46,498 nucleotides of DNA from Rhizaria sp. SCN 62-66 (GCA_001724265.1 MEDY01000238.1:1-46498), one strand, 5' to 3'. Positions 3,791 through 46,498 are shown, counted from the first letter of the stretch. A program made the numbers and translations. Notes: a model not told the origin generated them from the sequence alone.

Positions 3791-6700
3791 TTACCGCCGC
3801 TGCTGCGCACGCGGATCGCCCTGTGGTCCAAACCCCGGTGGCTGTTGTTGCGCGGGTGGCGCATGCAGTTGACCCTGATGAAGTGGATATTGTTGTTGTT
3901 GATGCTGCTGCGGATACTGTTGGTACTGGCCTTGATTGTGGTTGGGACCTCCGTATCCTTGGCCCGAACCCGGCGGCCCATGCAGCGGTTGCGACTGTTG
4001 GTACTGATGATACTGCATCGTTGACGGCGCCTGGGGCGAGTGCGACTGCGCGCTTGGGTGCGGCTGGAACTGCAGAGGGCGAGACTGAGGCTGTAGATGT
4101 TGTGACTGTTGGTATGACACCAAATGCGCCTGAGGGTGATGTTGAGACTGGAGACGATACTGCTGTGCCTGCTGATACTGTTGGCCACTACTGTTGCTGT
4201 GAGGAACACTCGAACTACACCCACCCGGCGCCGAGTAACCCTGAGCACCGTATTGCTGCTGCTGTTGGTGGTAGCCTGCATGTTGATAACCCTGCTGTTG
4301 TCCTGCATGTTGTTGTTGGTGATGCTGTTGATGCTGCTGTGGAGGACGCTGCTCCTATCCCTGTTGCTGCGGCCATGGCTGATGTTGCGGTGGGTACTGT
4401 TGTTGTTGTGGTGAATACTGTTGCTGCTGCCGCAGCTGTTGCTGTTGCTGCGGATGCGGATGCTGCTGCTGCGGATGCTGCTGCTGCGGATGCGGATGTT
4501 GCTGCTGCTGATTAGGTGGTGGCTGTCCCTGTTGTTGCTGCGGTGGGAGTTGCGGGCGCTGCTGTTGCGGCTGCGGCGTCACATCAGCAGTGCCGTCACC
4601 GCTGTTACCTCCATTGCCCCCATCAGCATCAGCAGACGGCGGCGGTGGCGGCGGTGGTGAAGCCCGCCAGTGTAAAACAGTTGGCGCAACAATGGGCAGC
4701 GCAGAAGCCGGCGCCATTGGTAACGCTGCAACACTATCAACAGCAACAGACTGCGCAGAAGGCGCTGGTGCGGCTGTTGGAGCCGCAGACTGCGTTGTAG
4801 AAGTGACAGACGCAGCGGCAATGTCGCTAACAACTAAGGCAGGAGCGTTTACAGATGCTAAACCAACGGTCCCAGCATGGCTAGCCGCAGGGTTTGTCTG
4901 TTGTTGCTGCTGTTGCTGCTGTTGTTGCTGCTTCTCTTGTTGTTGCTTCTGTAGCGCCTTCTGCTGATCCTGCTGTTCCTGAATACGTTGTTGCACCTGC
5001 GCAATCTGCGCGCTCTGCTGCTGGCGCTGCGCCTGTTCCTGTTGCGCCTGCCAGTCGCGCTCGCTCTGCTTGCGGCGTCGCGCCTCTGCGAACGCAGCCT
5101 CAGTGCCAAGCGGCGCAACAACCGCGGCCACGTTCTCGATCGAGAGGCGCCGCGCGGTCGCCTGGGCAACGGCCTCGGCAGGCGACCAGCAGTGGCGGTA
5201 AAAGCCCCGCGCGACGGCGGAGGCGATGACGCCGCGCCACACGCTGTGCCCGTCGCGGGCGGCGCGCGCGCCGAGCAACTCGTGCTCCGGCGCCGGCTCC
5301 TGTGCGTCGCCAGTAGCTGCGTCGCTGTCATCAGTCATCTGGCTTGACTTGGCGGACACACTCTTTGCGTTGGCACTCGCTCTGTGAGTGCTCGTCGCGG
5401 TTGTGCCAGTGGTGAGCAGCGGCAACGCGAGCGCGGGAAGCGACGCGGCATCGACTGCGGGGCCCGCTGCTGTCGCGGCGCCGTGGCGACGGTGACGGCG
5501 CTGAGCCGCAGCCCCAGCCGCAGCCAATACGTCGTCTTCGTCAGCAGGGGTGACGTCACTGTCACCGGCGTCGTCGTCATCACTGTCATCTGCATTGACG
5601 CCATCAACCTCTTCTTCTTCGTCGTCATCAGCTGCGTCATCCTCATTGTCATCACCAGCGTGGCCCGCACCGCCTGCAGTGGCAGCCGCGTTAAAAAGCG
5701 TGAAAACGTCACATACAACAAAGCATCCCACACGCGCACGCGTCAACGCAACATTCACGCGCCGCCTGTCGGCCAAGAAACCAATGGGGAAAGTGACAGC
5801 GCGCTTGTGCGCCTGAGAGCCACTCTGACTGGATCCATGACTAAAAGCGCGACTATGAGCAGAGTTGTTGTCGTCTTCAGTCCCACCCTCGTTACCGTTA
5901 TGACTGTTAACGTCAACGACGTTTGTGCTTTTCGTGTCCGCGACAAGGGATACTTTGCCCCAGCCGGCCTTCGCATCCGCGGCAATAATACGGCCTGCAT
6001 TCGTGTTCCCGTCGTATTTGCCAGCGATTGATGACGGGGGACGGTACCAGGTCGACCCCAACAACAGTCGCAACAGCGATGGCGCGATGTTCCCAGGACC
6101 TGCGGCGATCGCAGCCATCAGCGCGGGCGCAAGTGCAAGCGCAGAGGCCAGTGGGAAGCACATCGGCGGCCGCACCAGCGTCGTCGAGTGTGCCAGCGCC
6201 GTCGCAAGGACCGCGGGCGGCAGGTGCGGAGGCGCGGCGGGCGGCGGCTGGCCCGAAAGCACGGACAACTGAGCAAGCGTGGCAGACGCAGCGGGCGCCA
6301 ACTCGCGCGCGGCCAGGTGTCGGGGCAGCGGACACGAGCGCACGCAGGAAAGGATCACGACGTCATTCTCCTGACCCTGCATACCGTCGACTGTGGACAC
6401 GTGTACGTCCAAAAAGCTGCCAGCAAAGGAGAAGAGCGCACCCTGCTGCACATAGCGTCCGGAACCACCGGCACCACCACTAGACTGTTGGTGATGCTGC
6501 TTCTGTGATTGTAGCTGTTGTTGCTGTTGCGCAAGGACAAGGTCAGGTACACCGTAGTGGAGATAAAAACAGTGCGGGCACCACGGGAACTCAACTGGCG
6601 CCGGTGCCGCAACGATTAGAGACGGCGGCGGCGGCGGCGGCGGAGCGCCGTGACTCTGAGAGTGACTGTGCGCGTGACTGTGAGGAGCAGGAGCAGATGT

Positions 6701-9700
6701 TGAAGGGAAAGCCGGAGGCGGGTGACATGGGCAGTCGCAAGTCTCGGGCTTCAGGTAAAATTGTCGGCGCAATCGATTGCGCTCCATGAGTGCAAACCGA
6801 TGTGCCTCGGTCAACAACTGCAGCAACACGCGGCGCTGATTCTGATAGAAAGTGACAATCGTGATCCTTGAGAGTCCGAGCGCAAAATAACGCCCCAGCG
6901 TATGCGCCAGCGCAAGCACGGCGCGCGCCTCGCGAAGGTTGCTCATCGACCGCAGAGACAGCGCGACAGCGGCCGCGGCGGATCGGCCACGTCCGCGCCC
7001 ACCGCCTGCAGCTGCAGCTGCGGCAGCGGCGGCGGCATCCTCGCTGTCATCCACACCGTCAAGTGTAAGATCTACTGCATCAGCGTCAACTTCAACGTCA
7101 GCGCCGCCGTTCTTGGAGAGAATCGCGGAGCGGAAGGCAGCGTCCACGGAATCACCGTCGCTCACGCGCATCTTGCTCGGGTCTAAGGGCGGATCCGAAT
7201 TTGCGTTATCGCTAACAGCAGCGGCAGCGCCTCGACCGTTCCAACCTCGAGCCGCAGCCTTCGCGGCGCGCTTAGCCGCCTTCTTATCCACGTCTGTCGC
7301 CACGTCCTCAGCGACGGAGTCGGAGACGGAACTTGAGGCACCGGCAGCAGCGGAAGCAAGCGCCGCGGGGAACTCGGCCCTGTCGCGCGGGTCCGTGAAA
7401 GGCACGTTGATGATTGTGAGGGGTGAGATATACCCGGTCAACAGCCGGCGTGACCGCGCCACATTGCCGGCAGCAGCGACGACTGCACTCGCGCCGCCTG
7501 CAATGTTAGCGCCGGCGTCTGCGCTGGCGGGCGCGGTAGGCGAAGCGAGTCCCGGTGCAAGGCCCAAACACGCCCCAATAGCACTGGTCGCCTGGCGCGC
7601 GTCGAGCGGCGCGATGAGGGTGCGGAACAAGTCCAGCGGCGGCAGGGTCGGGGCGGGCGCGCTCTGCGGCTGGGCCGGCTGATGGGCGTGAGGCGGAGGA
7701 CCGTGGGGGTGGTTGTTGCCGCTCTGATCCGGTTGTTGCTGTTGCTGTTGTTGCACAGATTGTTGTTGCGGTACGTGCGCACCGTGCTGAGCGTGCTGCG
7801 CCTTGTACTGTTGCTGTTGCTGCTGTCCTTGTTGAAGCAATGCTGACGTCGCGGGCGCGAACACGCGCAGCAACCCGCGCCAGATGTGCGGCGACGTTTG
7901 TGACACCTCACGGCACGCGTTCGGTACCGTCAACGCACCGCTCTGTCCGCGATTTGCACAGGCCTTAGACTGATGAACTGCGGCAAATGCAACTGCAGCG
8001 ACGGCGGCAACGCCTGTCATGCGGTCGGAAGCGTCAAGCGCAGCGCGCGCAGTGTCAGCGCCCGTTGTGACACGCCCAGCGTAAAAGGCACGCGAAGACA
8101 GCGACGCCACTACGGGGTCCATACGGTACTGCACAGTCAACATGCGACGCGGCGACAACTGGCGCGCCAGGAATAACATAAATGGAGGAGCTAACGACGA
8201 CGCCGGTGTGGTTGATGTCGCAGCAGCGCCAGGAGAGAGGAAACGGCGCGCAGCCAGCGCAAGGCGGCGTGGCGCAAAGGAAGTCGACAGTTGCGTCGAT
8301 ACTGACAGTGGGCACAGCGCGCAGTGCTCCTTCGCATCACGAACAACAAGTGCAGAGCTGAATTTACTGCTGGCGTTGTTGCCAGTGGCATCCTTCATAT
8401 TTTTGATATCGTCACTGCTCTTGTCGTCCGCTAAGGTTGCTGTGGCAACGGTGCGCTCAAGCGCGGACAACGCAGCATCCTGCAGCGCAACTGCGCGGGA
8501 CAGTGCAGCACCTGTTGCGAGCCCCGCAGCCGCAGCAGTTGACGCTGCCGAGAGCGCGCGCTGCAGACGCTCAAACAGAGACGTCTCAAACACTTGTGGC
8601 AGGCCGGTGGGCAGCAGCGAGGACGACGCGGGCAAGAACGAAGGCCAATAAGCAGGCAGCAGCGAGCGCGTAAAACTACTCGTGCTGCCCAAGCTGGATG
8701 TAGTACTGATGCTAGTGCTGACGCCGCTAACTGTTGCGCCAAGCGCTGCAGCAGTAGCCGCAGCGGCGGACGCAGCGGCAACAGCGGCAGCCGAAGCAGA
8801 TGCAGTCGCCGACGACTGCTTAACATCATCATCAGCGTCGACATCAATCGCGATCACAGATTCAGAGTCAGAATCGGAGTTAGAGTCCGAGTCCGAACTG
8901 GAAGAGTCAATCGTAATGATATTGATGTCGTTGTCGTCGTCATCGTTGTCACTGCTGCTGCTAACACTGCTGTCGCCGTCGCTGTCACTGTCACCAACAC
9001 TGCTGGTGTCGCTGCTACTGCTGCTACTGCTGCTGCAACTACTGCTGCTACCACTGCTGATGGTGAACGCCACGACGCCGCTGCCGTTCTCGCTGCGCGC
9101 GCGCGCCGCCTGTTCACGCACACGCTCGCGACGCTTGGCAGCAGCCGTCTCAGCTTCAGCGCGGCGCCGGCGCCTGCTTTCTTCCACTTCCGCAGCCTCT
9201 GCAGCCTCTGCGGCAACCGCGACTTCCGCGGCACGGGCCGCCGCAGCAGCAACAGCCGTAGCGGCTTCGATGCCGCGCACCACGATGGCGATCGCGGCCT
9301 CGATAGCGCCTTCGCCGCCCGACCGCGTCACGTGCACTGAGCTGCTACTGACTGTGCCTACAGTGGATACATCCCTATCCTTGTCCTTGACCTTATCACG
9401 GCTCTTGGACTCGTGACGCACACCTGCTGCGGCGGCAGCCGCAGTAACCGCAGCTGCAGCGCCTTCTGCGGCAGGATCATCCTGCAAGAATACCGTGGCG
9501 GGGAGCTGTTTGTGGTCGCCAACAAGCACGCAGTGCTGTGCAGCGCGCGCGAGCGCGACGAGGACCGTGAGCTCGGAGCACTGGCCAGCCTCATCAATGA
9601 TCACGTCGTCGAATACAAGAGGCGCGGGCCGCAGGCCGGCGTTCATTCTCAGGCCACCACCGCTGCCTGCGGCGGCGCCCGGTGCAGCGGCAACGGCGCC

Positions 9701-12700
9701 GATCGCGGGCGCGGGACGCGGGGAGAAGAGCGAAGGGAAACGGACCGAGACTGGAGCGCCGAATGCGTTGTATAGGTCACGCCCGCTAACAGCTGACTTT
9801 GCCGCAGACCCAGAAACAACACGGAAGGGATTCGCAGGGGCAAGCGCCAGCTCGGCGTCAACTTCGGCGCCGGCCGCAGCGAACTCTTTAGGCTCATAAT
9901 CGTCATCGGCGTCGACGTTGCACTCAATGTCGAAGGGCGAGGCCCAGTCTGACGACGGCCATTCATCGACTGAGAAGCCGTTCCACGAGTCGAACCCTGC
10001 GTCGGCCTGCGCGTCTGGACCACCGCTACCGCCGGGAGCGCCACCAGACCTGCTGCCAGCAGCTCCACCAGCAGCAGCGGCAGCGGCGGCGGCAGCGGCA
10101 GCGGGCGCGGCGGGCGCAGCGGCCCCAAGCGCGACAGCAGCCGAAGCAGCGCCAAGATGCGATGCCGCAGTGTTTGTGCGCGGCAGCTCGTCCGCACCAG
10201 AGCACGTGCAGAACACGATCGACGCCTCTTCCAGGATCGCGTCCTTGAGCACGCGCACACCGGGCGAATGCACAATCTGCGGGTTGCGCGAGAGCAGACT
10301 CTGTGCGTGCAAAGCTGCGTGCTGCTGTTGAGCATTCTGCTGCTGCGCCCGCTGAAGCTGCGCTGACTGCTGCGAATTCTGCCGTCCGCTATTGTTGTTG
10401 TACGCGTGAGTGACAGTGACGGGAAGTCCCAGCGACCGACACGCGCGGGGGTTGCCGCGCTCCACAGCGGCGTGCATTTCAAGCACAAGCGAGCACCGAC
10501 GCACTTCCTCGCGCAACGCATCGCGCCGCTCGGAGATGTCGACGAGCTTACCAACGACAACGGAAGCGGGCCGCGAGCGCAGTGTAAACGCCGGTGAAGC
10601 GAGCACTTCGGCAGCAGAGGCGACTGTGCCGCCCGCAAAGAGCGCGAGCGCTGACGGCGGCAGCGCAGACGCGGCTGTAACAGGCGGGATAATCGAAGAA
10701 GAGCTGCCAGACTCAACAGCGCCACGCGCGAGCGCGAGCTGCATGTAGGGTGGCAACGCACGGAGGAAAGAAATCGCGTCAGCAATGCACGTGACACGAC
10801 GGCCGAGCCCAGCGGGGGACCAGCGCAAATGCGGCGCAAGTGCAAAGAAGGCTTTGATGTGCTCAGAAGCGGTGCGCGTGATTTCGTTGTTGATGTTGCG
10901 CAGTTCGCGGTCAAACTCGTCCAGCGTGCGGCGCGCTTCGTCGACCGTCTGCCGCAGCTGCGCGGGCGTCTTGCGCAGGTACTCAGACACGCGAGTCACC
11001 ATCGCGATCTGCTCGCGCACAGCACCCTTGCGCAGCATACCCTGATTGTTGCCCAGACGCACAATCGACGGTGAGTAGGTCCTCAGTGCGCCGTCCAGCA
11101 ACAAGTCCACAGTCAGACGCTGCACAACTTCGTCGACGGCCGCGTTTGACGGCGCACACACCAGGATGCGCGGTTTGCGTCCAGCGGCGGGCGCCCAGGC
11201 CGAGCGCGCAGGCGGCGTTGGCGCGCGAGAAAGGTCGGCAGACTCGCGCCAGCGCTGCAGCGCGCCAGTGGAGACGGGCGCCTCGCTGAGCTCAAGTCCC
11301 AGTGCCGCGTAAAGCGTGAGCGCGTCGTTGTCGCTCACGTCGAGTCCAGCACCAAGCGCGCCGGGCGCTAGTCCAGACGCTGCAGCTGCGGCAGCTTCAG
11401 CGCGCGCCGCAGACGCAGTCGCGAGTGACCACTCGGGCGCAGCCGAAGTGTTCACGCGGCGCTGGACCCCAGCGCTGTTGTTGAGCTGGTTCGCAATCGC
11501 GGAAAGCGCGGAAGCCGTGTCAGAGCCAACGCCCGCAACGGTGCGCGCACGTGCGCTGGCGGCAGCTGCGGCTGAACTAGCCGTGGCGGCGGCAGCAGCA
11601 GAAGCCGCAGCGGACGCTGACGCGCGCGCGTTCTCAGCAAGCTTGACAAAGAAAGAACGAAGACGGCGCATCAGCACGCGCTGGCAAACGGCGCCAACGC
11701 GGACTTCGTATCCTGCAAGCGCACGGCCGAGGTGCAACGTGTTGAGCAGCGAGATAACGGTTTTGGTCTTGCCCGTGCCGGGCGGGCCTTGCAGCAACGT
11801 TACACCGCGCGAGAAGGACGACAGCGCCTCAAGTGCAGACGCACGCGCTCCCGGCGGCAGCAGCACGCGCGGCGGCGGCGCCAGTGCGGGTGGTAGCGAG
11901 CCCGGCGCTGGCAAAAGCGAGGACGCGGGACCGGGCACCTGCGTGCCAACAGCCGCGTGCAGCCTGGACAAGTATCCCTCAACACCGCTGTCCTTCTGCT
12001 CGTTCGACGACGATATGAATGATAATGGTGACGACTCAGACGATGACGACACAGCACTGCCACTGACAGCGCCAGATTGCGCGCTGTTAGCGTCAGCAAG
12101 CGGCCATGAGGGTGCTGAGCGGACGCGTTCAATTGTGTGCAGCACAGCGTCGATGGCGCGCAGCTGCGACGCGTTCAGGCGCTCTGCGAAGCGGAACTGC
12201 AGCGGCGCAGGCAGCCCCGCCCACAGCAACGACGGGGCGGGCAGCACGGACGCGGGCAGCGGCGTCGGCCGCAGCTGCACTGGAGGCTCCGCCGTCGCAC
12301 TCTGTGTCGTGGCTGCGGCGGCCGCAGCAGTTGCAACGGCTGGAACCCGGGCCGGAACAGGAGGGCGGTCACCGCAAAGACAAGCAAGAGTGCGTGAACT
12401 GGCGCTCTTGCTTCCTTGTTTCTTGCGAGCGCTCGCGTCAGCGGCGTTGTCTTTAGTCTCGTCGTCGTTCATATGAACATTAGTGTTCTTGGTGGTGGAA
12501 ATTACATCATCGTCGGTCATGGCAGCGCCGACATTACTGTTGATCTTGGTGTCGGTGTTCTCCTCAACCAGCGTCACGCGCGCTCCGCTACTGCTCCTGC
12601 CGCTGTCATTGGAAGTAAGAGTGTTCACAGTTGCGGGAGGAAGGCCACAGAGCGCACGCAGCACTGCTTGCGCGCCCGCAAGCGCAGCCACAGCACCAGC

Positions 12701-15700
12701 CGGATCCGCCGTCAACCGCGCCCATACGTTGTTTCCGGTGCCGCCGGAAACTGTGAGTGCTGTTGCAGTTGAGGCGGGCGCAGTTGAGAGGAGCGTACGC
12801 ACACGCTCAATGGCAACGCGCTCACGCACTGCAAGCCGCCGGACAAGCGCACGGTTCGTGACGTCAAGCAGCGCCTGGATCGCGCCGCGCCCCGCAGCCA
12901 ATCCGCCAACAAGTTTAGCACCTGATGCAACAGCAGGTGTGAGCGCCGAAGCGGGTGCCGATGCAACTGAAAGCGGGAGAAAAGCAGAGGCAGGGAGACA
13001 TCCGCCCGCAGGTTCCGAGAGCGTGCGGAAGAGCGGGAACGCGGGCATGGCAAGCACGGCGGCAAACTCGCGGCGCGCGGGGATCAGTGACGTCAGCGGC
13101 CACACGCGCAGCCGCAGCCGCTGCCACGCGGGCGCGGACGTAACTGACGCGTAGCACAATCCTGAAACTGCGGAAGTGACAAGATCCGACGTCACATTAG
13201 GGCTCGTGCGCAGCGACAGCGCGTGTCGTGGCGCCGCCTCGCCGCTTGCGGCACTGCTCGACGACTGGGCGAGCGACGCCGCACCAGTCAGCGGCCCAAG
13301 CTGGCCTGCGCCAAGCGTGGTCAGCGTACTGCCTTCAACGGTGTCTGTGTTGAGGACGTCGAAACCGGCGATGAAAGCCTCCTTCGCCAAGCCAGTGCGC
13401 ACGAGTGCGTGACCCATGTTCTGTCCCCTACCCTGAGGCGGTGTTGCCGCCGGCGTCGTCGCAGTTTCAGTCGGGTCGTCGCTCCAGAGCCCCCAGCGGC
13501 TGCGCGCGGCGTGGTACAGTGTCGCCAGCAGATCCTCCGCCGTGCGCGGCGTCGTCGACACGCACTCGGGCGGCGTCGCGCGCGCGGCGGCCACGGCGGC
13601 AGCCGTAACTGTGAGCTCAAGGAGAACGGTGGAGCCAGCGCAGTAAGAAAACGCGGGCACAAAGGTCTCCCCAGTGCGCGTGGGGTGCGGTACAACGGCG
13701 CGCGACGGCAAACTGCTGTTGATCGCTGGGCCGCGAGTCTGTCGCGCGCGCGAAGGGGTCGCCAACACGTGAACAGCGGGCACGCGCGCGCCGTCGTCGC
13801 CGCCCAGCGCCACAGCCGCCAGCACGTCGGCCGAAGGCCGGCACAGAACAGAAGCCGTCGCAGTAAGGTCCGCTGTCATGCTGCTCAGCGCCGCAATTGC
13901 GGCATTGCCTCCATCTGAGGTCCTCTGATTGCCACGCTGGTTGGGATTATTGCTATTATTGCCGTTGTTGCTCTTGTCGGGTGCGTTGGGGCGCGCTTCG
14001 CGCGACTGCCGGTGCGGCGCAGTTGGCGCAGCGTAAGCCGTACGCTCCGGCGCAATCATGAACACCGTAGAGTCATCGGCCTGCGCCACACGCTGCGCCA
14101 GCTCAGCCTTGTAGTCGCCGCCGTTGGAACGCTGCTGCTGCGCGAGCGTCAGAGCGAGGGACGGCGCGATGAGCGATGGCGTGAGTGTGACCAAATGACG
14201 CTCTGACCCCGTGTTAGTGGGCATATGTGGGTCAGAGCCCGCAGGCAGCATGTTCTGCGCCAGAGTCTCCGCCGCGGCCTCGCACTCGCCACGGAGCCCG
14301 ACCAGTCCCAGGGCGGGCACGTTTGAGGTATCAATGGCGAGGCACGAGGAAACCGAGGCTGGCGCGTGGTCCCAATAGTCGAAGCGCACGGAGATCTGGT
14401 ACGTGCGCGGCGCACGCGCAATCGCGTCAGTGCTGCTGTTGGTGCGTGCGTTTGCGTTGGCAAGAACGCCGCCGCCCGGCTGCGCCTGCCGGATCATAAA
14501 GCGGTGCGGGCCGCCTTCATCATCCCACGCAATGACGTCGTCGTCGTTGTTCTCCTCAACATCATCGTCATCATCATCGTCGATATCGTAGACAATCGCC
14601 ATGTCGTCATCGTCGTCAAGCGCGACGTAGTTGTCATTGTCATGCATCGAACGGCCGCGTGCCGCACCCGCAACAGCACCGCCACGCGCGCCAGGCGCAC
14701 CAACGGGCTTTTTGCCCTTGTTCGCATCGGCGGCAGCAGCGTTGTTGTTGGTCGTCTTCGCAGAAAGGATGGCGGCGGGGTCAACGGTGAGCACGCCCAG
14801 CGGGTCGTGGATGCTGAACACGTGCGCATAACGACCGGGCGCGTACCACTCGCTGCCAGCCGCGGCGTCAGTGTCGCCCACAGCGGCCGCCGCTGGGGGA
14901 GCGCCGAAAGAGCCGTTGACCAGCGCTGCCGCGGCAGAGGGCGCGAGGCCACCGAGCAGCGCCAGAACTGCCGGGTCTGTCTCAGACGCGTACTGAGTAC
15001 CCTGAGGCGCCGGACGCGCGCTATTGCTGTTGGTCGGAATCGAGCTGTACGAAAAACTCGAACCTGAGTTAGGGGTCGGCTTTGTGGGCTCGAGCTTCAT
15101 TGTAGCACCATCGACATTATTGTTGTTGTTACCTTGCTGCATCTGTTGCTTAAATCCCTGCTGCAGCTGTTGCGAAACGGCGCTCATGTTGGCAATAGCG
15201 CCAGCGCTCGCAGTGCCCATGTGCGGTGTCGTGGCAGCAAAGACCTTAGCCTCGTTGAGCTGCGAGTAGAGCCAGCGCCCCTGCGGCGTGACCGCAGACC
15301 GGAGCTCGCGCCGCGCGAGGCGCACTGCGCGCGCCGACGCCGCGTGCACGACGCGCAGCGCGCGGAAGCACGACACGCGGAAGTGCGCGTACTGCCGGCC
15401 CTGGCTCAGCCTCTCAATGTCGCTCGCGTCCACTGCAACAGGGGCGGTCTCAGTCGAGCCCGACACTGCGCCTCCAGACACAGCGTCCGCAACAGCACCT
15501 GAAACATTAGCAATGCCAGAAAATGACAGCGAGCTTGACAGCGCATTAAGCTGCGACTGCGGCGAAAAAAGACTGCTGCCAACAGGTTGTTGGTGCTCCT
15601 GCTGTTGCTGCACGGCAACGTGCTGCGCGACACGCATCGGGACGGCGGCCGGGTCGAACGCGATTTCGTACACAGCAGACGCGGCAGCCACGGTCATCGC

Positions 15701-18700
15701 GCTGCGCAGTGGCGGCAACGGAGCTGCGCTCGCTCCCTGCTCCGTGGCAGCCGCGGCAGCGTTGGCAGCGGCAGCCGCGGCGGAGGCGGTAAGGAACGGG
15801 CGCGCAGGCTGCACGGCAGAGGGCACGAGCGCAGTGACAGTGCGCATGCTGCTGATGGTGAGCCTGTGCGCGACGAGGTTCACGACGCCTGAGGCGCGCA
15901 TGTTCGCGCGCGACGCAGTGGCGCACGTCTCGCCGCGCGGGTGCGCCGTCACGTGCGCCCACAGCCAGTCGAACACGGTCGCGGCGTCGGCGCGCGCGCT
16001 CGCTGTCAGCGCGACCGCGTCGCCGGTGCCGCTGGAGCCCGCGGTGGCGGTCCCGGTGCCCATCATGGGGGAGGCAGCGGGGCGGCGCGCGCGGGCCGCG
16101 GCTGAGCTACTCGTGCCGGTGCTGCCACCGGCGCTGCCCGTGGCAGTGCCGCCGGTGCACGCGCCCGAGGCAGTAAGTGCGGAGACAGCGGGTGTGCCCA
16201 TGACGACAGCGGTGGCGAGCATGCGCACCAGAGGACGCAGCACCGCGAACAGAACGGTGTTCTTCGCCTGCTGCCGCGCCGAGGCGGATGAATCTTCTGC
16301 CGCCGACGCAGCTGCCGCGGGGCCAAACGCAGCGGCGGCAGCGGAACCAAACGCTCCACCTTCAGCAAAACCAAAAACATAGGAAGGATTTGCAGATGCA
16401 GCGGTGCATTGCTTAGCTATCTCAGCAGTGACGAGCGTGTCTGCAAGCTCAGCAACGGCCGAAAGCGCAACGAGTGCAAACGCGAGCCTCTGCGCGCGCG
16501 TGGCGACTGCTGCGGCCGCGCCCAGAGCTGCAAAGGGCATAACAAAGGTTGCTTGTCGCACGAAGCCCAGCTTGGCTGCCCCGTCGTCGGACTTGGCGCG
16601 CGCGTAAAACCACCAGTGGTGGCGCGCAGCAATGGCGGCCGCCGCCAGCACGGGGCTCGCGCCGTTCGCGGGGCTCGAGCTCGGCAGCCGTTTGTTCGTG
16701 ACCGAGTTCCACGGGTCGTTGGAGAACCAACGCAGAGTCTTGATGAGCGGGGGCGCAGCCAGAGTCGCTGCGTGGTGCACTGTGCAGTACAGCATCGCGC
16801 GCGCGAGCGACATCACGAGCCAGTTCGCAGGGGACGCCGCCGCAGCCGTGCCGAGGGACAACGCACGCAAATTCATCACACCGTCGGCAGCGCCGCCAGC
16901 GTTGTAATTTTGGTTATAATTCATCTGTGCACCATTTTTCCCCTTCTTATCACGTTTCGCATTGTGGGCATTGTTCGCAGCGTTCGTGTTGCCAGCGCCG
17001 TGATTGTTGACCGTGAACGTAGCTCCCAACCCGAGGGCATTGAGACACCAAGTGACCGCGCCCACGGCGCTCACCGGCCGCCCGGTGCCTGTCTTGGACG
17101 CGGGCCCCAACGCCTGGTGCACGGACTCGTACTCGCTCAGCAGCGACGCGTGGATGTCGAGGAAGAACGGCGGCAGGAAGTAGCTCAGGTACTCGAGCGG
17201 GGACGAGAACGAGTGCAGGCGCCGCACACGCGGCCGCAGCAGCGCCTCAAGCGCGCTCTGGCACGTCGCCGGGGACGAAAACGACAGCAGCAGCTCGCGC
17301 TGCGAGTCGCGCTGCGCCGCAGCAGCAGCCGCAGCCGCAGACTCGGCGCTCTCCGGCACGCTCTCGGCCGCGCTCTTGTTCGGAGCCATGGGCACAGCTC
17401 CAGAGCCAGAGCCAGAGCCAAAAGCGGAAGCAGAGGCAGAGGTGGCGGCAGTGCCGGGAGCCGGCGGCCGGGAGCGGGGCTTCGCGGCCGCAACGGCGCC
17501 GTGCGCTGCCGCGGCAGTAAGCAGCGCGACCACGCTCGCGGCCGCGGGCGGCAGCGGCGGCGGCGGCGGCAGCGCGCTGAGCCCGCCGCGGCCGCTCGCG
17601 CGGAGAAGCTCGAGCAGGAACGGGTCCGTGCGGCCCGCAGCACCGCCCGCGGCGCCACTGGCAGCACCCGCGCCCGCGCCCGCGCTGCCAGCGATGCTGG
17701 TGCTGGCACTGTTGTTGTTGGCGCTCATGGGCAGACGCAGCAGCCCGTCTTTGGAGACGAGCAGCGGCGTGAGCCCGCGCGCGCCGACGCCTCCCATGCC
17801 CTTCTCCTCGCCGGCTCTGCCTCTGCCCGCGCGCGCGCCGCCGCCCACAGCCGCGCCGCAGGCCGCTGCGGCCGCACCGGCGGAGGAGACCGCGACTGAG
17901 GCGGAGGCGGAGGCGGCGGTGAGGCCGAGGTGCACGCGCTGCATGAGCGCGGTGACTCCCTCGTACCACTCGCGCCACTTGGCGCCCGCCGCGGCGGACG
18001 CGGCGGCAGCGCGCGCGGCGGCCGCGGAGCCTGGCGCGGCGGAGACGTCGAAGAAGAACGGCTCGAAGACGAGCGGCGGCAGTAGGTGCTGCGGCGCGAA
18101 GCGGCCCTCGAGCGGCGCGGCAAGCAGCGACCAGCTGCTGACGCGGGCGCGAAAGGCCGCGCGCGCGCGCCGCGTGTGCAGCGCGGGCGCGTTGTTGCCG
18201 CCCTGCAGGACGCCATCGCCGCCGCCCCTGGCGCCGCCCTTACCGTCGGCGTCGGCGTCAACGTGCGTGATGGATGTGTAGGACAGCGGCACGGGGGCGA
18301 GGCCCGGGGACGTAAGCGTCGCGGCCAGGCGCGCAGAGCCCGAGAAGGCGGCCGCCACGGCCTGTGCGTGCGAGCGCACGGGCGGCGCGTAGGACGTCGC
18401 GGCCACCGCGGCGGCAGTCAGCATAGCCGCGGCGGCGATGGAAGGGACGCGGGACTTGGCCGGACGCGCCGCCTGGGCCTGCGGCTGAGGTTGAGAGGGG
18501 GCTTTCGCAGCGGCAGACGGGGCGTCGACAACCTCGAGTCCAGGGGACGTAGAGACCTGCGGGCGCGCCTGCGCCTGCGACTGCGCTAGCGTCTTCTGCT
18601 GTGCTTGTAGCTGTTGCTGTTGCTGTTGCAGTTGTTGTTGTTGTAGTTGCTGCTGCGCGCCGGCGGGAGAGCGCGAGCGCGAGCGCTTTACGCCCCGACC

Positions 18701-18891
18701 CACGGCGACCGACACAGCGATAGGGTCCGCGAAGGACGCCCCCGCAGACAACGGGGCACTGGCACCAGCGCCTGCAGAAGACGCAGACGCAAGAGCAGGA
18801 GCCACAGGAGGCACAGCTCCAGACGCGGTCGCAGCTGGGACAGAAGGACGCTTGGGCGCTGCAGCAGCACTACTCCCACCAGACGCGTTCC

Positions 18892-18922
<31 letters not shown>

Positions 18923-20233
18923 ACTGCTACTCGTCGGGGCGAGCGCGCTCACCGCGAGCGCGGGCACGGACGCGGGCGCGCCGGCGGCGGGCGCGGGGGG
19001 GCCGAAGAGCGTGTGCGCGAGCGACGGCGTCGACGGCGGCAGCGGCCGCCACTGCGACCCCGCGCTCGCGCTCGCGCTCGCGCTGGAGGTGCCACTGACG
19101 CTAGAGCTGGCGGCGGAGCCCGCACTCTGACTCTGGCTGTGGGTCTGACTGGAGCTGTGATGGCTCTGGCTCTGAGGGTGCACTGGCTGCGCCTGTATCG
19201 CCGTCGGAACAGTCGCATTCGATGCCGCTGCAGTCGCAGTCGCCGTCGTGGCCGAGTCGGCGGCTGCCGTCCCAGCAGGCGCAGGGGCCGGCGCGGGCGC
19301 AGCCACCGCGCCCGCGGCCGCAGTGGGGGGCGCGGCGGAAGGAGAGGCCGAGGCGGTGGCCGCGCTGATCGTGGCGGCCACCTGGCGCGCGCGCTGATAC
19401 AATGACATCAGCGACTGCGGCTGCTGAGACTGAGACTGTGAGCGCGACAGAGACTATTGCTGCTGCGGCTGTGGAGCGGCAGCGACTGCGAGCGCTTGCG
19501 CCGTCGCTGGCGCTGCTGCTGCTGCAACGGCAATGTTCGGGTTTGCAGCAGCAACAGCAGCGGCGGTCGCGGGCAACGAGCCGTGGACGATCTCAAGCTG
19601 ATACTCCTCCTCGTCCTCGTCGTCGCCGCTGCTGGTGCAGCTGCTGTCGCCGTCGTCGTCGAGCTCGCTGTCGGCCCCGCAGTCCAGGTCGCGGTCTTCG
19701 TCCAGCGCCGCACGGCCATGCAAGTGACCGTGGGCAGCGGAGTGACCGTGGGCAGCGGGGTTCGCGCTCGCGGTGCGGCTGCGCTTCGCCTGCGGCTGCA
19801 TCTGCGCCTGCAACGGAGACTGCGACTGCTGCGGAAACTGGGACTGCAGCTGGGGAAACGCAGCCGCTACTGGCGCTGATACTGCTGATGATGATGATGA
19901 TGACGCTGGAGCTGATGCTGTCGATAGCACGGGCGCGGGCGCAGGCGCGGGCGCTGCGGCGGCGGCGGCGGCAGCGGCAGCGGCGGCCTCACGCGCGGCG
20001 GCTGCGGCAGCTGCGGCAGCAACGGCCTTTGCAGCGGCGGCGGCCTCCGCAGCTGCTGCAGCCTCCGCCGCGGCGGCAGCGGCGGCAGCCTCGGCGGCGG
20101 CGGCAGCGGCGGCAGCGGCGGAGGCAGCAGCGGAGAGGCCCTGGTACACCTTGCCGGGGACGTCCTCGAGCGGCGGCGGCACGTCGTCGCCCTGGTCCAG
20201 CTCGGCCTCAAACAGGGCCAGCGGGTCAGACAT
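3791..20233 (-). CDS. SEN1: Giant Sen1/senataxin-like (Upf1-family SF1B) RNA/DNA helicase, ~5,480 aa, single exon, two in-frame TAG codons (19454-19456, 4355-4357)
   Basis: Ordered motifs: LLQGPPGTGKT, ILVCAPSNAAVDE, IIDEAGQ, VLVGDHKQLPATV, SLFERL, LTVQYRM, STVDGMQGQENDVVILSCVRS, GFLADRRRVNVALTRAR. ORFs 19454..20254, 4355..19408 and 3791..4123 share one frame and are separated only by single TAGs. ATG at 20233 (MSDPLALFE), TAA at 3791-3793, and minus-strand AATAAA at 3687-3692. Orthology to Sen1 rather than another Upf1-like subfamily is an inference. Confidence 0.85.
4355..4357 (-). other. In-frame TAG, probable sense codon (Sen1-like, C-terminal region)
   Basis: Context WPQQQG*EQRPPQQHQQHHQQQ. 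The frame stays open for 187 more codons to TAA. Confidence 0.8.
19454..19456 (-). other. In-frame TAG, probable sense codon (Sen1-like, N-terminal region)
   Basis: Context PQPQQQ*SLSRSQSQSQQPQSLMSLYQ. Confidence 0.75.
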
Positions 20234-25009: not shown

Positions 25010-25082
25010 GTCCGTGTAGCCGAGCGGTTAAGGTGTCTGCCTACGAAGCAGAAGATCGTGGGTTCGATTCCCACCATGGACT
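25010..25082 (+). tRNA. tRNA-Arg(ACG), isodecoder B (identical to 23606-23678, inverted)
   Basis: Same cloverleaf on the plus strand, followed by a T-run. Confidence 0.95.
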
Positions 25083-25437: not shown

Positions 25438-25510
25438 AGTCCGCGGTGGGGATCGAACCCACAATCTCCTGCTTCGTAGGCAGACACCTTAACCATTGGG
25501 CTACGTAGAC
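25438..25510 (-). tRNA. tRNA-Arg(ACG), isodecoder A (identical to 3402-3474, inverted)
   Basis: Exact reverse complement of 3402-3474. The upstream 26 nt are also 23/26 identical. Confidence 0.95.
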
Positions 25511-39862: not shown

Positions 39863-40147
39863 ATTCCTGATCGAAAAGTGTGCACCGGGCCTTCTTAACG
39901 ATCACAAACTGGAGATATCATTTGATGATGATAGGACTCTTCGTGGTCCTCCGACGATCAACAACGGCTCTCGTATCAAAGCCGTGGGTTGTCCCTTTTT
40001 CGCTAGCACTCTACACCTTATCTCATCATTGAATAAGACTTTAACTACTTCTACCAAACTGTACAGCCTCTTTTGTATACTATAATTTTGGCTTACACTT
40101 CCAAATTATGCACCGCTCTCACTATTTCACATCTCCTGAAGACCAAG

Positions 40148-41824
40148 ATGCTGCGCCGGTCGACACGGCTGACGCTGCGCAGCGCTGCCGAGGCCGAGGA
40201 GATTCTGAGTCCCGCCAAGCCCGCCGCTGCGCCGGAGACCAAGGCGGATGACTCGTACGTGCTCGACTATGACATGCCTCCGCAGGTGTCTCTGGGCGGC
40301 TACTCGCGTCACGTCACTCCGGGCGCCCAGCGCATCCGCAGCAGCTTCGCGCCTTCCCTCGCGTCGCTCGCTTCTCTCGCCACCGTGCCCACTGCGTCCG
40401 TCGCGCCGCACACACCCGCTCCGCCGACCACGCTCTCCACATCGTTCTCCGACTCGCTGGACTCGCCGCCGCCGCCCGTGGCCTCGCTGCGTACGCCGCG
40501 CTTCGCGCGCCCGATGAACCCCGTGACCAGTCTCTCGGGCCTCAACACGCCCGGCGCCGGCGCGGCCGGCCACGCCGGGCTTGGCGCGATTGCGAGTACG
40601 CCCTTCGCGGCGCGGGCCGGCGCGGGCGCGTTCCCCGCCACGCCCAGCGGCTTCTTCGGCCACAATAGCCACCACAACAACAATAACTACAACGCCAACG
40701 CCACTGCCGCTGCTGCTGGTGCTGGTGCTGGTGCTGGTGCTGGTGCTGGTGCTGGCGCTGGCGCTGGCGCTGCGGGTGCGAACACGCTGGCGACACCGCG
40801 GCCGTTTCCGGTGCACCCCGGGCACACGCCCGCGCCCGCGGTGGCCCCCACCTCGGCCTCTGCGTCTGCTATATCCAGCAGCAGTAGCTCCAGCGCTGCC
40901 CACTCCGCCTTCAGCCCTGCACCTCACACCGCCGCTGCCGCTGCTGCGTCGCCCGCGCACTCGCTCGTCCCGGCGGCCCCGATGACCGCTGTGTTTGTGG
41001 CGGCGTCGGCGGCGGCGCTGGTGTCGGCCCCCGACGCCCGCGCGACCGCGTCGCTGCTGCGGCACTGCGTGACCGTCTTCGGCTTCCCGCCCCACCGCGC
41101 CGCGCTCGTGCTCCCTGCGCTGCTGCGCGCCGCCGCCGCGGCCTCCGCGGGCGGCAGCGCGGGCGGCGCGGGCGCGCGCAGGGACCCCGCGGCTCCGGAC
41201 GCGGCCGTGGCCGTGCTGGCCCTCGGCTCGGCCTCCGCGGCCGAGGCCGTGCTGTCGCGCAACGGTGCGCTCGTCGGCGGGTACATGATCGGCGTCAAGC
41301 CCACGGAGCGGCACGAGGTGTCGGCCGCGTTTCTGCTTTCGCTCGCCGAGGAGGCCGCCGCCCAGGCGAACAATAGTCACGCCGCGGCTTATGTTAAGAG
41401 CAGCGACGTCCTGGGCTACGACGGCGATGACGACAACAACGGGGAGGACTACGCGGCGAAGCAGCTGCGTGCGGGCCACGACGGCAGCGATGACAGCAGC
41501 GACAGTGAGCAGCAGTTGGAGCAAGACCAGGCCGCTGCGGTCGCGGCGGCGGAGGCGGCCGCGGAGGCCGAGGCCGAGGAGGAGGCCGGGGACATCTTTG
41601 ATCTTGACGCGCACATGCAGCGCCAGGCCCGCGTTGCCGCCGCGCGCCGCTCGCGCTCGCGCTCCGCCGCGCCGGGCAAGAGCAACAGCAACTGCAGCGA
41701 GTCTGCATAGTCCGAGTCTGTGTTTGCGGGACGGGCTGGGGTGCAGCGGGCGCCGTGGGAGGACACTGTGCCGCGTCGTGTATCAGTCTGTGTGCGCATT
41801 TGCGAGTACTTTCGCGGATATTGA
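40148..41824 (+). CDS. NUP35: Nucleoporin Nup35/Nup53 (MPPN-type RRM); in-frame TAG at 41708-41710
   Basis: RRM ends CVTVFGFPP...AEAVLSRNGALVGGYMIGVKP (cf. WVTVFGFP...ALSKDG..IMIGVKPC). Reading through the TAG gives C-terminal SVCVRICEYFRGY-TGA, resembling the Nup35 terminal amphipathic helix SLVSKAMEYMFGW. Confidence 0.82.
41708..41710 (+). other. In-frame TAG, probable sense codon (Nup35)
   Basis: The frame stays open for 37 more codons to a Nup35-like C-terminus and TGA. Confidence 0.8.
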
Positions 41825-42509
41825 AACACGAGCTGCGAAGTAAGAAGCGCAAACGAATGGACGTGAGCAGAGAATAACGTTTATCATGTTCGGAGCGTGA
41901 TTATGTTCCACTCTCTTCGGGGCCAGATATAATGGCCTTTTGGCGGCTCGATGGAGACTGCACAACATAAAGTCCTATTTAATGTGATCAAATCTATGCA
42001 TTGTCGCTGTTTATAGTTTACCACAGCTGAATCTCACTCAAATATCGACTTGATTGTGATACCACCACAAGCTTCTCTATCACTTGACTGCTGCGCAGTG
42101 AGAGGCGACAGGTGGGACTTTAGGTAAACTTTGAGTCGCTGGATCTGTTGCTATTGAACGTCGATAATGACAGCGCCATATATTCATATTAAAATAAGAG
42201 CGATGTACTGCGTTTTAAATTTCGTATCTTTAACAATGCTCGTCTCGACCTTAATATCCACTTTTTTCTGTTCCATACCTCGATCCATCGTTCGAATTAA
42301 CTTCACTTCCTTCCCGTCCGTCTGCCCTTTGTTCGATTGCAGTCTTCCTTCTTCACGCGTGTGCTTTCGCACCACACGTCTAACTCACACACATCAACGC
42401 TCTCCAGCGTTTGAGAGTTGCGCTTTTAGCTTCCCTGTAGACCACTAAAGTCTCGTCTTGTTCTCGGTTCAAACGTCGCGCTCGCGTTTGTTTGCCCACC
42501 TTCCCTTCG

Positions 42510-45500
42510 ATGCGTCGCTTCCTGCTCCTGCTGGCGTCCCTGGCGTCACTGCTGGTGCTGCCTGCGCTTGCCAGTGACCCGCGCGTGGCTGAGGTCGCGT
42601 ACACGCGCGTGCTCAGCTCGCGCCCCGCGTTCCGCACCCTGACCCGCGATTCGGTGGCCGGCTCCGCCTCCGCGCGCGGCGGCACGCGCGGCGCGCTCTT
42701 CTACGTCAACGACACGGCCTCGTACGACGCGCTGCTCGCACTTGTGGGCGCCGGCGCGTCGGCCTCGGCCCCGCGCGTGGCCGTCGTGATGGAGACGACG
42801 TTCTTCACCGCGCCGATAATCCGCGCGCTCAACGCGTCGATCCCGACTGACCGGCTCGCTGCCGTGCTCGTGATCCCCGCGCCCGCGCCCGAGGACGGCT
42901 TTTCCCCCGCCGAGCCCGCGCCCAATGGGCCCGTGGACATCAACGCCGCGGCCGGGTACCAGTGGAACCCCCTGGGCACTTCCTTATCATTCGACTCGTT
43001 CCCTTTCCCGCTCACCTCGATCACAGGCAGCAATGCGGTCACGCTGCGGCGGCGCGCGCTGGCCAACGCGGCGCGCCGCGCGGAGGGCTCGCACCCGGGC
43101 TACACGGCGCACGCGCGGCAGTACATGTTCTCGACGCTTTCCTCGGAGAACTGCTTCGAGGTCAACAACTGCTATCCCATCGGAGGCTACTCTGTCTGGG
43201 CCACGCTAGGCAACCTCACGGCTACTAACGACACGCCTTCGCCGGCGACCAACAGCTCGAAGCGCGAGATCGTGCTGGTGGCGAGCCAGATGGACGCCGC
43301 GGCCTTCTTCCCCGGCCGCGCACACGGCGCCGACGCCGCCGTCTCCGGTACCGTCGTCACTCTGGCCGCCGCCCACGCGCTCAGCCAGGTCGAGGGCGTC
43401 ATGGCGCTGGAGCGCAACCTCATCTTTGCGCTCTTCAACGGCGAGAAGTTTGACTACGTCGGCTCCCGCAACTTTTTTGGCGATTTATATGGCAATTTCA
43501 CCTGCCCTGAAGGCAACGAACGGCTCGGCACCAGCCCCAACGGCACTGAGGGTGTGCCTGTCGGCTGCAACCAGCCCTTCCGCACCGAGTTGGCGTTCAA
43601 AAACGTACGCATATATCTTTATGTCGACGCATAATCAAACTATTTTCTTTTAAGACGTCGTTTTCCTGTCGCATTTTGTAAGTTTTGAGTTGCACTAATT
43701 TGTTGCTCTTGGCTCTTCTTTTTCGTTCGTGTTGTTTAGATTGACCCGAACCAGATTGTGTCTGCCATTGAGGTGAACCAAGCTGCGCTGTCGACTTTCC
43801 TTTACGCGCACATTGAGGTCCGTTGTAACTCTTAATCTACGCTATTATAGCATCGACACTCTCGCTCTTGCTGCGAGAGGGCGACTTTAAAGTTTGTTGC
43901 TTGCGAGCCATTTTTAGAGCACAAATCTTGCATGTATCGCACAATTCTATGCTAATTTACCTTTTCCTATTATGTTTTACGCAATTCACAGAAAAACTCG
44001 ACCTCTGCGCCCGACCTGGTGGCTGCGATCAAGGCCGCAGCCGCGACGACGCCGCTGCCGTACCCCCCGCCCGGCTACACTGAGGTCAAGGACGCTGCGG
44101 CCGAGACCCCCGGGCTGCCCCCGGCGTCGCTGCAGTCGCTCGTGGCCGCGCGCCGCCTTGCGCCGCTGCCGGCTGCGCTCGCTAACGGCAGCATTGCGGA
44201 CCAGGTACGTAGGCGAAACATCTTGTGACGACGATTATCTCAAGACTTTCTGTGCCATATCGCGGCTTTTTTAAAGCTTATTTGTGTGGATTTTTTTGTT
44301 TCTTTATGCTTCAGTTTCGAGCCAAAAGATGCGTGCTTCTATCACATCATACTTATTTGTGTATCTTTATTGTCGTGCTTTCACTTCCATCGTTCTTAGG
44401 ACGCGTGGCGCGACGTGCCCGCCGTCGTCCTGACTGACCATGAGGCCCAGTATGTCAACAAGTTCTACGGCTCGCGCCTTGACAACCTCGACAATATTAA
44501 CAAAGACCAAGGTACGTTTCATATCTACACACGGTGGCAAACTTGATTAGTGTCAACTCACTTTGAGTTCACTTTGCGTTCTTGGTGTTACTCTCACAGT
44601 ATCCAACTCTTGACTTATGTTTCACTGGTAACCGCTCTTGCTCATCATCTTCACTTTGCTTTGTTCCCCTTGCTATGTCCCCACCCCCAGGCTTTAACCA
44701 GCTGTGTGCGTCTGCGACGCTGCTGGCGCGCACGCTGCTCACGGTCGCGCAGCCCTCGTCCCCGCCCAACGCCACCGCGCTCGCCGCGGTCTCCGCCGAC
44801 TGCGCGCTCGTCGTCGACCTGGTTCACTGCCTTACCGTCAACCCAGGCTGCGAACTGCTCAACGCGGTTGCCCCGGGCGCGTTCGGCGCCTCTGTGGCCG
44901 CTGCGGCGACTGCCGTGGTCAACTCCGGCGGCACGGCGACGACCAATCTGTACGCGCAGAACCCACCGTCGCTGTACCCGTCCTCCTACATCCCCATGTT
45001 CCCCTCGTACGTCACTTAGTTCACTCTTAGATCCGCACCGTGCTAATTGAAAATGAAAATGCGATCTTCAACTCCACCCTAATTGTTTTTCCTTTGCTCG
45101 ACTCCCTTGGCTTTTTTGTTTTTTGTTTTTTGTTTGTGACTTTTAATCTTTCTCAGCCAAATCATGGGCATGCCGGCCGCGCTACGCGGCTTTCTGGACG
45201 CTGTGGCGCGCAACGCGACTCTGGCCGCGATCCCCGACGCTGACCCGGCCGACGCGGACGCCGCCGCCGCCGCCAAGGCCGCGGTGGCGAAGCAGTCGTT
45301 CGCCTTCTTCCACGACGCCCTGGACCCGGGGCTCGCGCTGGACCGCGCGCGGCGGCGCTTCGTGGTGCTGCCCGCGGTCAGCGACGACACGGCCGAGGAG
45401 CTGCTGCCCTGGACCGGGCTGGCGACGCCGTTGCCGTGGAGCGCGTCGCGACTGTGGGCGGAGAGCAACTGGGACAACGACATCGGGCTCGACCTGTACC

Positions 45501-45622
45501 GCACAGAGGACGGCGACGTCGTCATAATGACTGCGATTGGCGGCGCAATCACGGCCGTTGTTGGGTTCTTCGTCGTGGTCTGGGTGCGCCGGTGCGCACG
45601 CAGGATGTACAAGGAGACGTGA
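42510..45622 (+). CDS. NCSTN: Nicastrin (gamma-secretase subunit); exons 42510-43604, 43740-43817, 43992-44204, 44400-44511, 44691-45006, 45157-45622
   Basis: Signal peptide, WNPLGTSLSFDSFPFPL, CYPIGGYSVW, FNGEKFDYVGS (DYIGS motif), GLPPASLQS, VVLTDHEAQYVNKFYGSRLD, WAESNW and a C-terminal TM helix. All five introns keep the frame. Ends in TGA. Confidence 0.94.
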
Positions 45623-46123
45623 AGCATCGAGTCTGCGCGAGTTAGGTGACTCAAAAGTGCCGACTTCGTGCTTTTCAGGTGGATGTTCGGGTCTTGCGAG
45701 ATCTTGAGACACTCTACCGGGCCATTATGAGATAAATACACTGATTATTGCTTTATTATTTCAATCGATATGAAATTTCAAGCTTCTAGAGAACGATTTG
45801 TGATGCGTTTGAGAGGGGTCGGTTCCCTGAGAAACGAGAAGGGATATACACAGGGGAAATAAAGGTCTTTGGAAGCCGGAAAAAAGATGATCTTTTGAAA
45901 AGATATGTTAAATGAATCTTGTTTTGATTGTTTTAAGAAAGTGGAGAGATAGAGCGTGAATCTTGCAGGAATGTTTGATATGAGCGAGGTGGTTCCCAAA
46001 AATCTTGCGGGCAGCTGCTGGTCGCAAAAATGAATCCCCCGCCCCCTCATACTAGCTCCGAATGCGGGGCCCTCTCGAGACGACCTCCCGGTCGATTTCT
46101 TTCGTTCGGTTATCAAGGAAACC

Positions 46124-46498
46124 ATGTCTTCCAAGGTACGTGCTGATCCTTTTGCATATTTTTGAGACATTGATTTACGCTCCCGCGCATTCTGCATTGC
46201 TATTTCGGTTCATTTGTGCCTCTATATGGCTTGTGAAGGTTGGCCCTAGGGCTTAGTCCGGTCAGTGCAAACTCTGGTTGCCTGCGCTATGCTGGCTTGC
46301 GTCGCCCCGCCGTTGCCGCATACTTTAGCATTATCTCACATATACCCACACTTCTTCTATACCTTCATGTCGTACTCCTGCCTCGCTCCCGCTTCATTGT
46401 AGGTTGTCGTCATTGACTGCAAGGGTCACCTGCTCGGTCGCCTCGCTGCCGTTCTTGCCAAGGAGCTTCTCAATGGCAAGAAGGTTGTGTGCGTCCGT
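46124..46498 (+). CDS. RPL13A: 60S ribosomal protein L13a (uL13), 5' part; exons 46124-46135 and 46403->46498
   Basis: [36 protein letters not shown], with a GTACGT...TTGTAG intron. Confidence 0.95.

Follow-up and report, generated by a model that had tools for sequence, protein, structure and literature searches.

Reassignments of UAG are reportedly found in phyllopharyngean ciliates. Nuclear codes in which UAG alone has become a sense codon, with UAA and UGA kept as stops, have been described for Iotanema spirale, where UAG specifies glutamine (Gln), and for the rhizarian exLh, where it specifies leucine; UAG is frequent in both organisms (384 occurrences across 71 genes and 204 across 126 genes) and occupies conserved positions that reveal its meaning (PMC5304391). 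Here, we analysed a stretch of 46,498 nucleotides (nt) from Rhizaria sp. SCN 62-66 (MEDY01000238.1:1-46498), referred to as the window, in which a gene at 40148-41824 meets an in-frame TAG and continues behind it into a conserved C-terminal tail. The product is probably a Nup35/Nup53-type nucleoporin, and the most economical explanation would be that the organism as a whole reads UAG as a sense codon and stops at UGA and UAA; we assign this a probability of about 50%. As with the I. spirale and exLh codes, window genes carry in-frame TAG and the sampled terminators are only TGA or TAA. Moreover, two of the three in-frame TAGs found lie in Gln-rich runs. A literature search on stop-codon reassignment in activated-sludge eukaryotes or on Nup35 readthrough returned nothing relevant by title or abstract.

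For the protein itself, the closest described systems are the Nup35/Nup53 nucleoporins of the inner ring, represented by vertebrate Nup53 and yeast Nup53p/Nup59p, which carry an RRM and, at the C-terminus, an amphipathic helix that binds membrane. Xenopus Nup53 begins with a disordered N-terminus, followed by an RRM, a C-terminal region that is again disordered and, at its end, a short hydrophobic segment; its last 8 residues with the terminal tryptophan form a C-terminal membrane-binding and membrane-deforming site, and the C-terminal region is needed for NDC1 binding (PMC3474928). The Nup155 site lies just upstream of the C-terminal membrane site (PMC8700311). The window protein resembles this family in having a disordered N-terminus, a central RRM, a disordered C-terminal region and a terminal segment. 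Its tail is likewise short, hydrophobic and basic, sits at the very C-terminus and has an aromatic final residue, and a conserved motif lies just upstream of the tail, at the place where Nup53 binds Nup155. It differs from the family in that its RRM scores under the Pfam gathering score and contains an alanine/glycine-rich insertion, that its tail lacks detectable similarity to solved chains, and that a TAG parts the tail from the rest of the open reading frame (ORF). Furthermore, the tail contains two conserved cysteines and ends in tyrosine, whereas Xenopus Nup53 ends in tryptophan.

An in-frame TAG and the tail behind it

The 3' part of the gene is organized as follows, positions being counted from the first letter of the window:

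40148..41707, plus strand: Nup35/Nup53-like ORF as far as the first stop, the in-frame TAG; a single GC-rich exon of 520 codons, with an N-terminal half of low complexity
41708..41710, plus strand: in-frame TAG, situated in a linker of variable sequence (GCA TAG TCC GAG)
41711..41821, plus strand: in-frame extension of 37 codons, reading SESVFAGRAGVQRAPWEDTVPRRVSVCVRICEYFRGY; GC 0.62
41822..41824, plus strand: TGA, the proposed true terminator; GC declines beyond it, to 0.47 in the next 120 nt

Positions 41690-41710 read AAC TGC AGC GAG TCT GCA TAG, and the ORF from ATG 40148 ends in NCSESA. A sequence-only reading of this DNA had described an ORF that stops at SESA-TAG with the same frame open to a TGA, and direct inspection found its coordinates and its reading to be correct. 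An open frame of 37 codons is by itself unremarkable, because the DNA is GC-rich and a second frame, 41391..41843, is likewise open across the extension. The codon-usage log-odds of the extension amount to -0.002 in frame as compared to -0.46 and -0.68 in the two other frames. The TAG is also flanked by an 8-nt direct repeat, CGAGTCTG, the copies being 15 nt apart (41698-41720, plus strand) and yielding SES-A-TAG-SES-V. Considered as a duplication scar, the repeat was set aside since the remainder of the unit does not match; it is probably a chance occurrence, although a small in-frame duplication might have left it behind.

One way to explain the TAG is that it is not real or is absent from the mature messenger RNA: assembly or sequencing could have introduced an error, or the TAG could be removed by U-to-C editing or by a small intron of an unconventional type. 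We consider this very improbable. A second assembly, the metagenome contig L001 (2700 nt), is identical over 41306-42100, TAG included, and the database ORF P0001, which is the window ORF as called by a standard gene caller and derives from 2 contigs, ends at the TAG. Because L001 and P0001 both repeat the TAG, a one-off assembly error is ruled out; the contigs may derive from related samples, and they do not address between-strain variation. With regard to splicing, six introns can be recognized in the window, of which a nicastrin gene has five and a uL13 gene one. They are AT-rich, about 100-250 nt long and carry a GTACG donor in 5 of 6 cases, whereas the region around the TAG is GC-rich and lacks such a donor. 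A tiny intron over the TAG was rejected because the nearest GT-AG pairs, spanning 10, 16 and 46 nt, break the frame encoding the conserved tail, and the nearest in-frame pair would remove the conserved RSRSRSAAPG block.

An exhaustive HMMER search with 41030-41821 as query against 1.84 billion representative proteins (E<=0.001) returned two matches, the window's own ORF P0001 and a relative, P0002 (E 7e-28). P0002 comprises 218 amino acids, originates from a 6439-nt JGI contig and is about 50% identical to the window protein. Its alignment starts in the middle of the RRM, crosses the TAG position and extends to the final residue, and its linker is free of stops. The two proteins end in ...APWEDTVPRRASFCRRLCEYLRVY (P0002) and ...APWEDTVPRRVSVCVRICEYFRGY (window), and both P0002 and the read-through protein of the window terminate directly after the final tyrosine. 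When the 37-residue extension alone was compared with the P0002 C-terminus, 19 of 26 residues were identical in an ungapped alignment (pairwise BLASTP, E 1e-12). Together with two upstream motifs, the tail is among the best conserved blocks shared by the two proteins:

41591..41623, plus strand: conserved motif DIFDLDAHMQR, identical in P0002
41648..41677, plus strand: conserved motif RSRSRSAAPG, identical in P0002 and the final conserved block upstream of the TAG
41744..41821, plus strand: conserved C-terminal module QRAPWEDTVPRRVSVCVRICEYFRGY, matching the P0002 end at the 19 positions given above

As the tail is conserved in P0002, the GC content falls from 0.62 to 0.47 after the TGA and the codon-usage score is higher in frame than out of frame, we conclude from the sequence that the extension is the C-terminus of the protein, now or until very recently. 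The P0002 alignment thereby bears out the claim of the sequence-only reading that a conserved C-terminus is gained only if the TAG is decoded. It also bears on the idea that the extension is an open 3' untranslated region that accidentally resembles a Nup35 tail. Open frames are common in GC-rich DNA and the extension has no significant match to solved Nup35 chains, which would suit such a coincidence; however, because the extension matches the P0002 C-terminus from end to end, we regard chance as effectively refuted, with next to no probability left to it. Beyond P0001 and P0002, word-based searches revealed no relatives. Scans of genome contigs with the two-orthologue profile and with nicastrin exon 1, as well as scans of viral contigs, yielded no relative, and a metagenome contig scan found the same strain (L001) only.

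A probable Nup35/Nup53-type protein and its C-terminal module

The assignment of the protein family is based on the first of the following elements, whereas the second concerns the tail:

41066..41305, plus strand: RRM_Nup35-like domain (Pfam PF05172), residues 307-386, with the alanine/glycine-rich insertion inside it
41780..41821, plus strand: candidate terminal amphipathic helix formed by the last 14 residues, proposed from the hydrophobic moment and a low-confidence AlphaFold 2 (AF2) helix

RRM_Nup35 is the sole Pfam family matched by either orthologue, and the VTVFGFP and G.M.GVKP signatures are present. Measured against a gathering score of 24 bits, all matches stayed below the cut-off, reaching 14.9 bits (E 0.027) for the 558-residue read-through protein, 20.9 bits (E 3.6e-4) for a 100-residue piece encoded by 41030-41330 and 19.6 bits (E 9.4e-4) for P0002. 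A profile built from the two orthologues and compared with all sequences of the Protein Data Bank (PDB) gave ten matches at E<=10, six of which are NUP53/NUP35 RRMs, including the top match 7tbj_Q1 (E 0.047); the remaining four are RRMs of terminal uridylyltransferase/Star-PAP. The Nup35 identity put forward in the sequence-only reading is thus probable in view of the single Pfam family and the six PDB matches, yet weak when the sub-threshold scores of the 100-residue piece and P0002 are considered. Inside the Nup35-like ORF, a GCTGGT/GCTGGC microsatellite (40705-40770, plus strand) encodes an (Ala-Gly)n run.

As to the nature of the tail, its amphipathicity depends on the hydrophobicity scale. 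On the Fauchere-Pliska scale, the hydrophobic moment of the last 14 residues is 0.51 for the window protein and 0.58 for P0002, values that are reached by 2.1% and 1.6% of 5000 shuffles, respectively. On the Eisenberg scale, 28% (window) and 9% (P0002) of shuffles reach the moment of the tail, which is not significant. The amphipathic helix that had been predicted from sequence alone is therefore favoured by one scale and not by the other. The AF2 model of P0002 places a helix at residues 201-217 with a predicted local distance difference test (pLDDT) score of only about 42-52, and the AF2 models are overall too poor to be relied on (mean pLDDT 45 and 39) because the alignment depth is insufficient.

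The sequence-only reading had also proposed a resemblance between the last 13 residues and the human Nup35 tail, and this part found no statistical support. The 37-residue extension found no match at E<=10 among PDB sequences, and a profile of the 26 tail columns returned five PDB matches, all of them MOZART1 with E ~1, and no Nup35/Nup53 chain; the library includes full-length human NUP35 (7r5j_F0, 326 residues), and a motif of 26 residues is so short that significance is hardly reachable. What remains of the likeness to the Nup35 tail is position and character, namely a hydrophobic and basic segment at the very C-terminus with a final aromatic residue. A function of the tail as membrane-, Ndc1- or Nup155-binding module would follow from these two properties by analogy. 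The tail further contains the motif SVCVRICE (41783-41806, plus strand), which corresponds to SFCRRLCE in P0002 and to SICVRLCE in the MOZART1 chains of the PDB. A relation to MOZART1 was considered and, given E ~1 only, taken as chance. Two cysteines of the motif are conserved between the window protein and P0002.

Taken together, we propose that the gene encodes an inner-ring nucleoporin of the Nup35/Nup53 type. Because the C-terminal module lies downstream of the in-frame TAG, the protein would be full-length only where translation places an amino acid at UAG. From N- to C-terminus, the predicted protein would comprise a disordered first half, a central RRM of the Nup35 type, a disordered linker that is acidic at first and basic further on, and the 26-residue C-terminal module. 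The latter contains the motif APWEDTVPRR and, behind it, a 14-residue terminal segment of hydrophobic and basic character whose last residue is tyrosine. By analogy with Nup53, this module is the likely binding site for the pore membrane and for Ndc1/Nup155.

Further TAGs in a giant helicase and a proposed sense reading of UAG

In-frame TAGs are also present in a second gene of the window, which encodes a giant helicase of superfamily 1 (SF1):

3791..20233, minus strand: SF1 helicase gene with AAA_11/AAA_12 domains; 5480 codons if both TAGs are read, ending at TAA 3793-3791
19454..19456, minus strand: helicase TAG no. 1, codon 260, context CAG CAA TAG TCT CTG
4355..4357, minus strand: helicase TAG no. 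2, context CAG GGA TAG GAG CAG, inside a tail rich in Gln, histidine and proline

The helicase starts at ATG 20233, and beyond TAG no. 1 the frame is open for 5,033 codons. In the shared frame, the 259 codons upstream of TAG no. 1 reach +0.62 bits per codon, as compared to -0.72 and -0.88 in the other frames. Because codon usage points strongly to coding in one and the same frame before and after TAG no. 1 and GC stays high across the junction, the region around TAG no. 1 is one coding sequence with an internal TAG. An in-frame ATG occurs 15 codons downstream of this TAG. Behind TAG no. 2, 187 Gln-rich codons run in phase to the terminal TAA, after which GC drops to 0.37. This second site is the weaker case, since all frames are open in the CAG/CAA-rich DNA and codon usage is ambiguous, and as a coding continuation it is suggestive only. 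The sequence-only reading had pointed to support from a second gene family, and the helicase does carry in-frame TAGs, the first of them with a coding frame on both sides. The helicase also contains very long inserts of low complexity, rich in alanine, serine and Gln, and would be split or cut short by a standard gene caller.

We extended the analysis to all nine window genes with a visible 3' end. Six of them stop directly at TGA and one at TAA, and two meet a TAG first. After the seven TGA or TAA stops, the open run measures 2-24 codons with a GC of 0.31-0.51; the two TAG-first genes exceed all of these on both counts, with open runs of 37 and 187 codons and a post-stop GC of 0.62 and 0.53. 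In none of the nine genes, a small sample, is TAG required as terminator. Among about 9,600 modelled codons, the in-frame stops are three TAG, no TAA and no TGA. A scan for TAGs within coding-like flanks returned 20 sites. Of these, the site at 19456 alone belongs to a known gene in its sense frame; judged by their coordinates, the remaining 19 lie antisense to genes or out of frame and were rejected. Thus, in-frame UAG within demonstrably continuing coding sequence is found as three TAGs in two genes, solid for the Nup35-like gene and for helicase TAG no. 1, suggestive for TAG no. 2.

According to the reading that we favour, UAG would be a rare sense codon throughout the genome, perhaps Gln, with UGA and UAA staying terminators. 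It is the most economical proposal because a single assumption covers all three TAG sites. Gln is a guess from context, prompted by the Gln-rich runs that surround two of the three TAGs. The decoding of UAG, the residue inserted and the Nup35 function of the tail are what we infer. More specifically, the organism may have an independently evolved nuclear code at an early stage, with UGA and UAA as terminators and a rarely used sense UAG that would probably mean Gln and be confined to disordered parts under low constraint, such as the linker ahead of the presumed membrane-binding Nup35 module; we put this forward tentatively, at slightly less than an even chance.

Several points weigh against a sense UAG. 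Code variants have a low prior probability, and the window was chosen from many for looking odd. None of its seven tRNA genes has a CUA anticodon. Two of nine genes meeting TAG first is the share expected under the standard code. Unlike I. spirale and exLh, the window offers a mere three TAGs in its ~9,600 codons, all in low-complexity and poorly alignable stretches, where truncation or re-initiation might be tolerated. None of the three UAGs occupies a conserved position that would identify the amino acid, and the encoded residue is not revealed by any of them because all lie in unalignable low-complexity linkers. The continuation past helicase TAG no. 2 is statistically uninformative, and the codon usage of the Nup35 extension is merely neutral. 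On the protein side, the Nup35 assignment is built on sub-threshold scores, and the tail has no detectable similarity to solved Nup35/Nup53 chains, human or yeast.

Some of these points suit the main competing explanation, by which the code is standard and the TAGs are recent nonsense alleles, fixed in this lineage, that truncate Nup35, cut the Gln-rich tail of the helicase and interrupt its N-terminus. Translation of the helicase would then start anew at the ATG that follows TAG no. 1 after 15 codons, which would rescue the protein, and the Nup35 extension would be a relic that has not yet decayed. All three TAGs lie in disordered regions of low complexity whose loss is perhaps tolerated, TAG is one transition away from CAG, which is the prevailing codon in the surroundings of two of the sites, and two TAG-first genes out of nine is a normal TAG share. 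Moreover, the conservation with P0002 proves only that the tail was coding until recently, and yeast survives the loss of both Nup53 and Nup59 (PMC8700311). However, three fixed alleles in the modelled codons, affecting two of nine genes in a 46-kb window, would be very many for a genome that functions. Every one of these stops is TAG and none TAA or TGA, the 37 and 187 downstream codons contain neither frameshift nor additional stop, and the identical sequence recurs in more than one assembly. We therefore hold nonsense alleles to be unlikely, though they are the rival to be taken most seriously. The restriction of a rare UAG to disordered linkers fits an early or weakly used reassignment and tolerated nonsense alleles equally well.

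In animals and fungi, functional readthrough of a stop codon is known to equip some proteins with a C-terminal targeting signal, for example the peroxisomal isoforms of metabolic enzymes. Under the standard code, gene-specific programmed readthrough could likewise yield two isoforms, most Nup35 being tail-less and a regulated fraction carrying the membrane/Ndc1 module. As in such systems, a functional-type C-terminal module directly follows the stop, and this module is conserved. The TAG position in P0002, however, has no stop, and therefore a dual-isoform design is not conserved. The contexts TAG TCC GAG, TAG TCT CTG and TAG GAG CAG share no common motif and are not known to fit the contexts of readthrough sites. 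Nor is there a sign of a stimulatory RNA structure, as the 123 nt from the TAG onward fold no better than shuffled sequences (z -1.10; 26 of 200 shuffles as good). Unlike functional readthrough systems, the window also has an internal TAG far from the 3' end in the helicase, and low-level passage at codon 260 of a 5480-codon gene would be very wasteful. We consider programmed readthrough distinctly improbable.

The host, the neighbouring genes and the meaning of a possible sense UAG

Across the window, coding stretches have a GC content of 60-74%, as compared to 34-50% in intergenic DNA and introns. The other genes are:

1-702, minus strand: N-terminus of an H+-translocating pyrophosphatase (N-terminal 234 residues), with strongly C-ending codons
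3401-3475 and 22020-25511: seven tRNA genes in AT-rich DNA (Arg-ACG four times, Lys-CTT twice, Ala-AGC)
29292-30188, minus strand: TEX47-like gene (Pfam E 5.5e-8)
30959-32736, plus strand: leucine-rich repeat (LRR) protein gene
42510-45622, plus strand: nicastrin gene with Pfam matches and five AT-rich introns, the donors being GTACG in four and GTCCG in one
46126 onward, at the window's end: uL13 gene with an opening intron that has a GTACG donor
within the window: a KH-domain protein gene, found among the Pfam matches
within the window: a TMEM234 gene

Because nicastrin and uL13 contain AT-rich introns with mostly GTACG donors, the window is a nuclear contig of an intron-bearing eukaryote. 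For the pyrophosphatase fragment, the closest Protein Atlas clusters are all H_PPase and mostly eukaryotic, and the Atlas labels the fragment 'Eukaryota'. The TEX47-like gene and the LRR gene, whose product we presume to be akin to a dynein assembly factor, suggest that the host is flagellated or ciliated. An Rfam scan of the window found the seven tRNAs and no other RNA family. Pairs of tRNA genes with equal Rfam scores lie on opposite strands (23606-23678 and 25010-25082; 3402-3474 and 25438-25510), suggesting duplicated, inverted copies. Four public sequencing runs from three studies, one of which may be where this DNA comes from, contain a fraction of 0.75-1.00 of the sampled words of 39900-46498. 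These runs are labelled as bioreactor or wastewater metagenomes, the exception being the unlabelled run X4, which belongs to the same study (P3) as an activated-sludge run.

If the TAGs were nonsense alleles, the finding would be an ordinary one. The data make it possible, though, that an uncultured wastewater protist uses a code with a sense UAG. Decoding of UAG would then be a further independent uncoupling of UAG and UAA meanings in a nuclear code, of which few cases are known. If true, this GC-rich, free-living lineage with its very low use of UAG would represent the intermediate that codon-capture models predict and that is rarely observed. Standard gene callers would shorten proteins of such an organism, leaving P0001 without its most conserved module and the helicase split. 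For the nucleoporin family, the tail and the APWEDTVPRR motif are candidate elements for anchoring to the membrane and to Nup155/Ndc1 in a divergent eukaryote.

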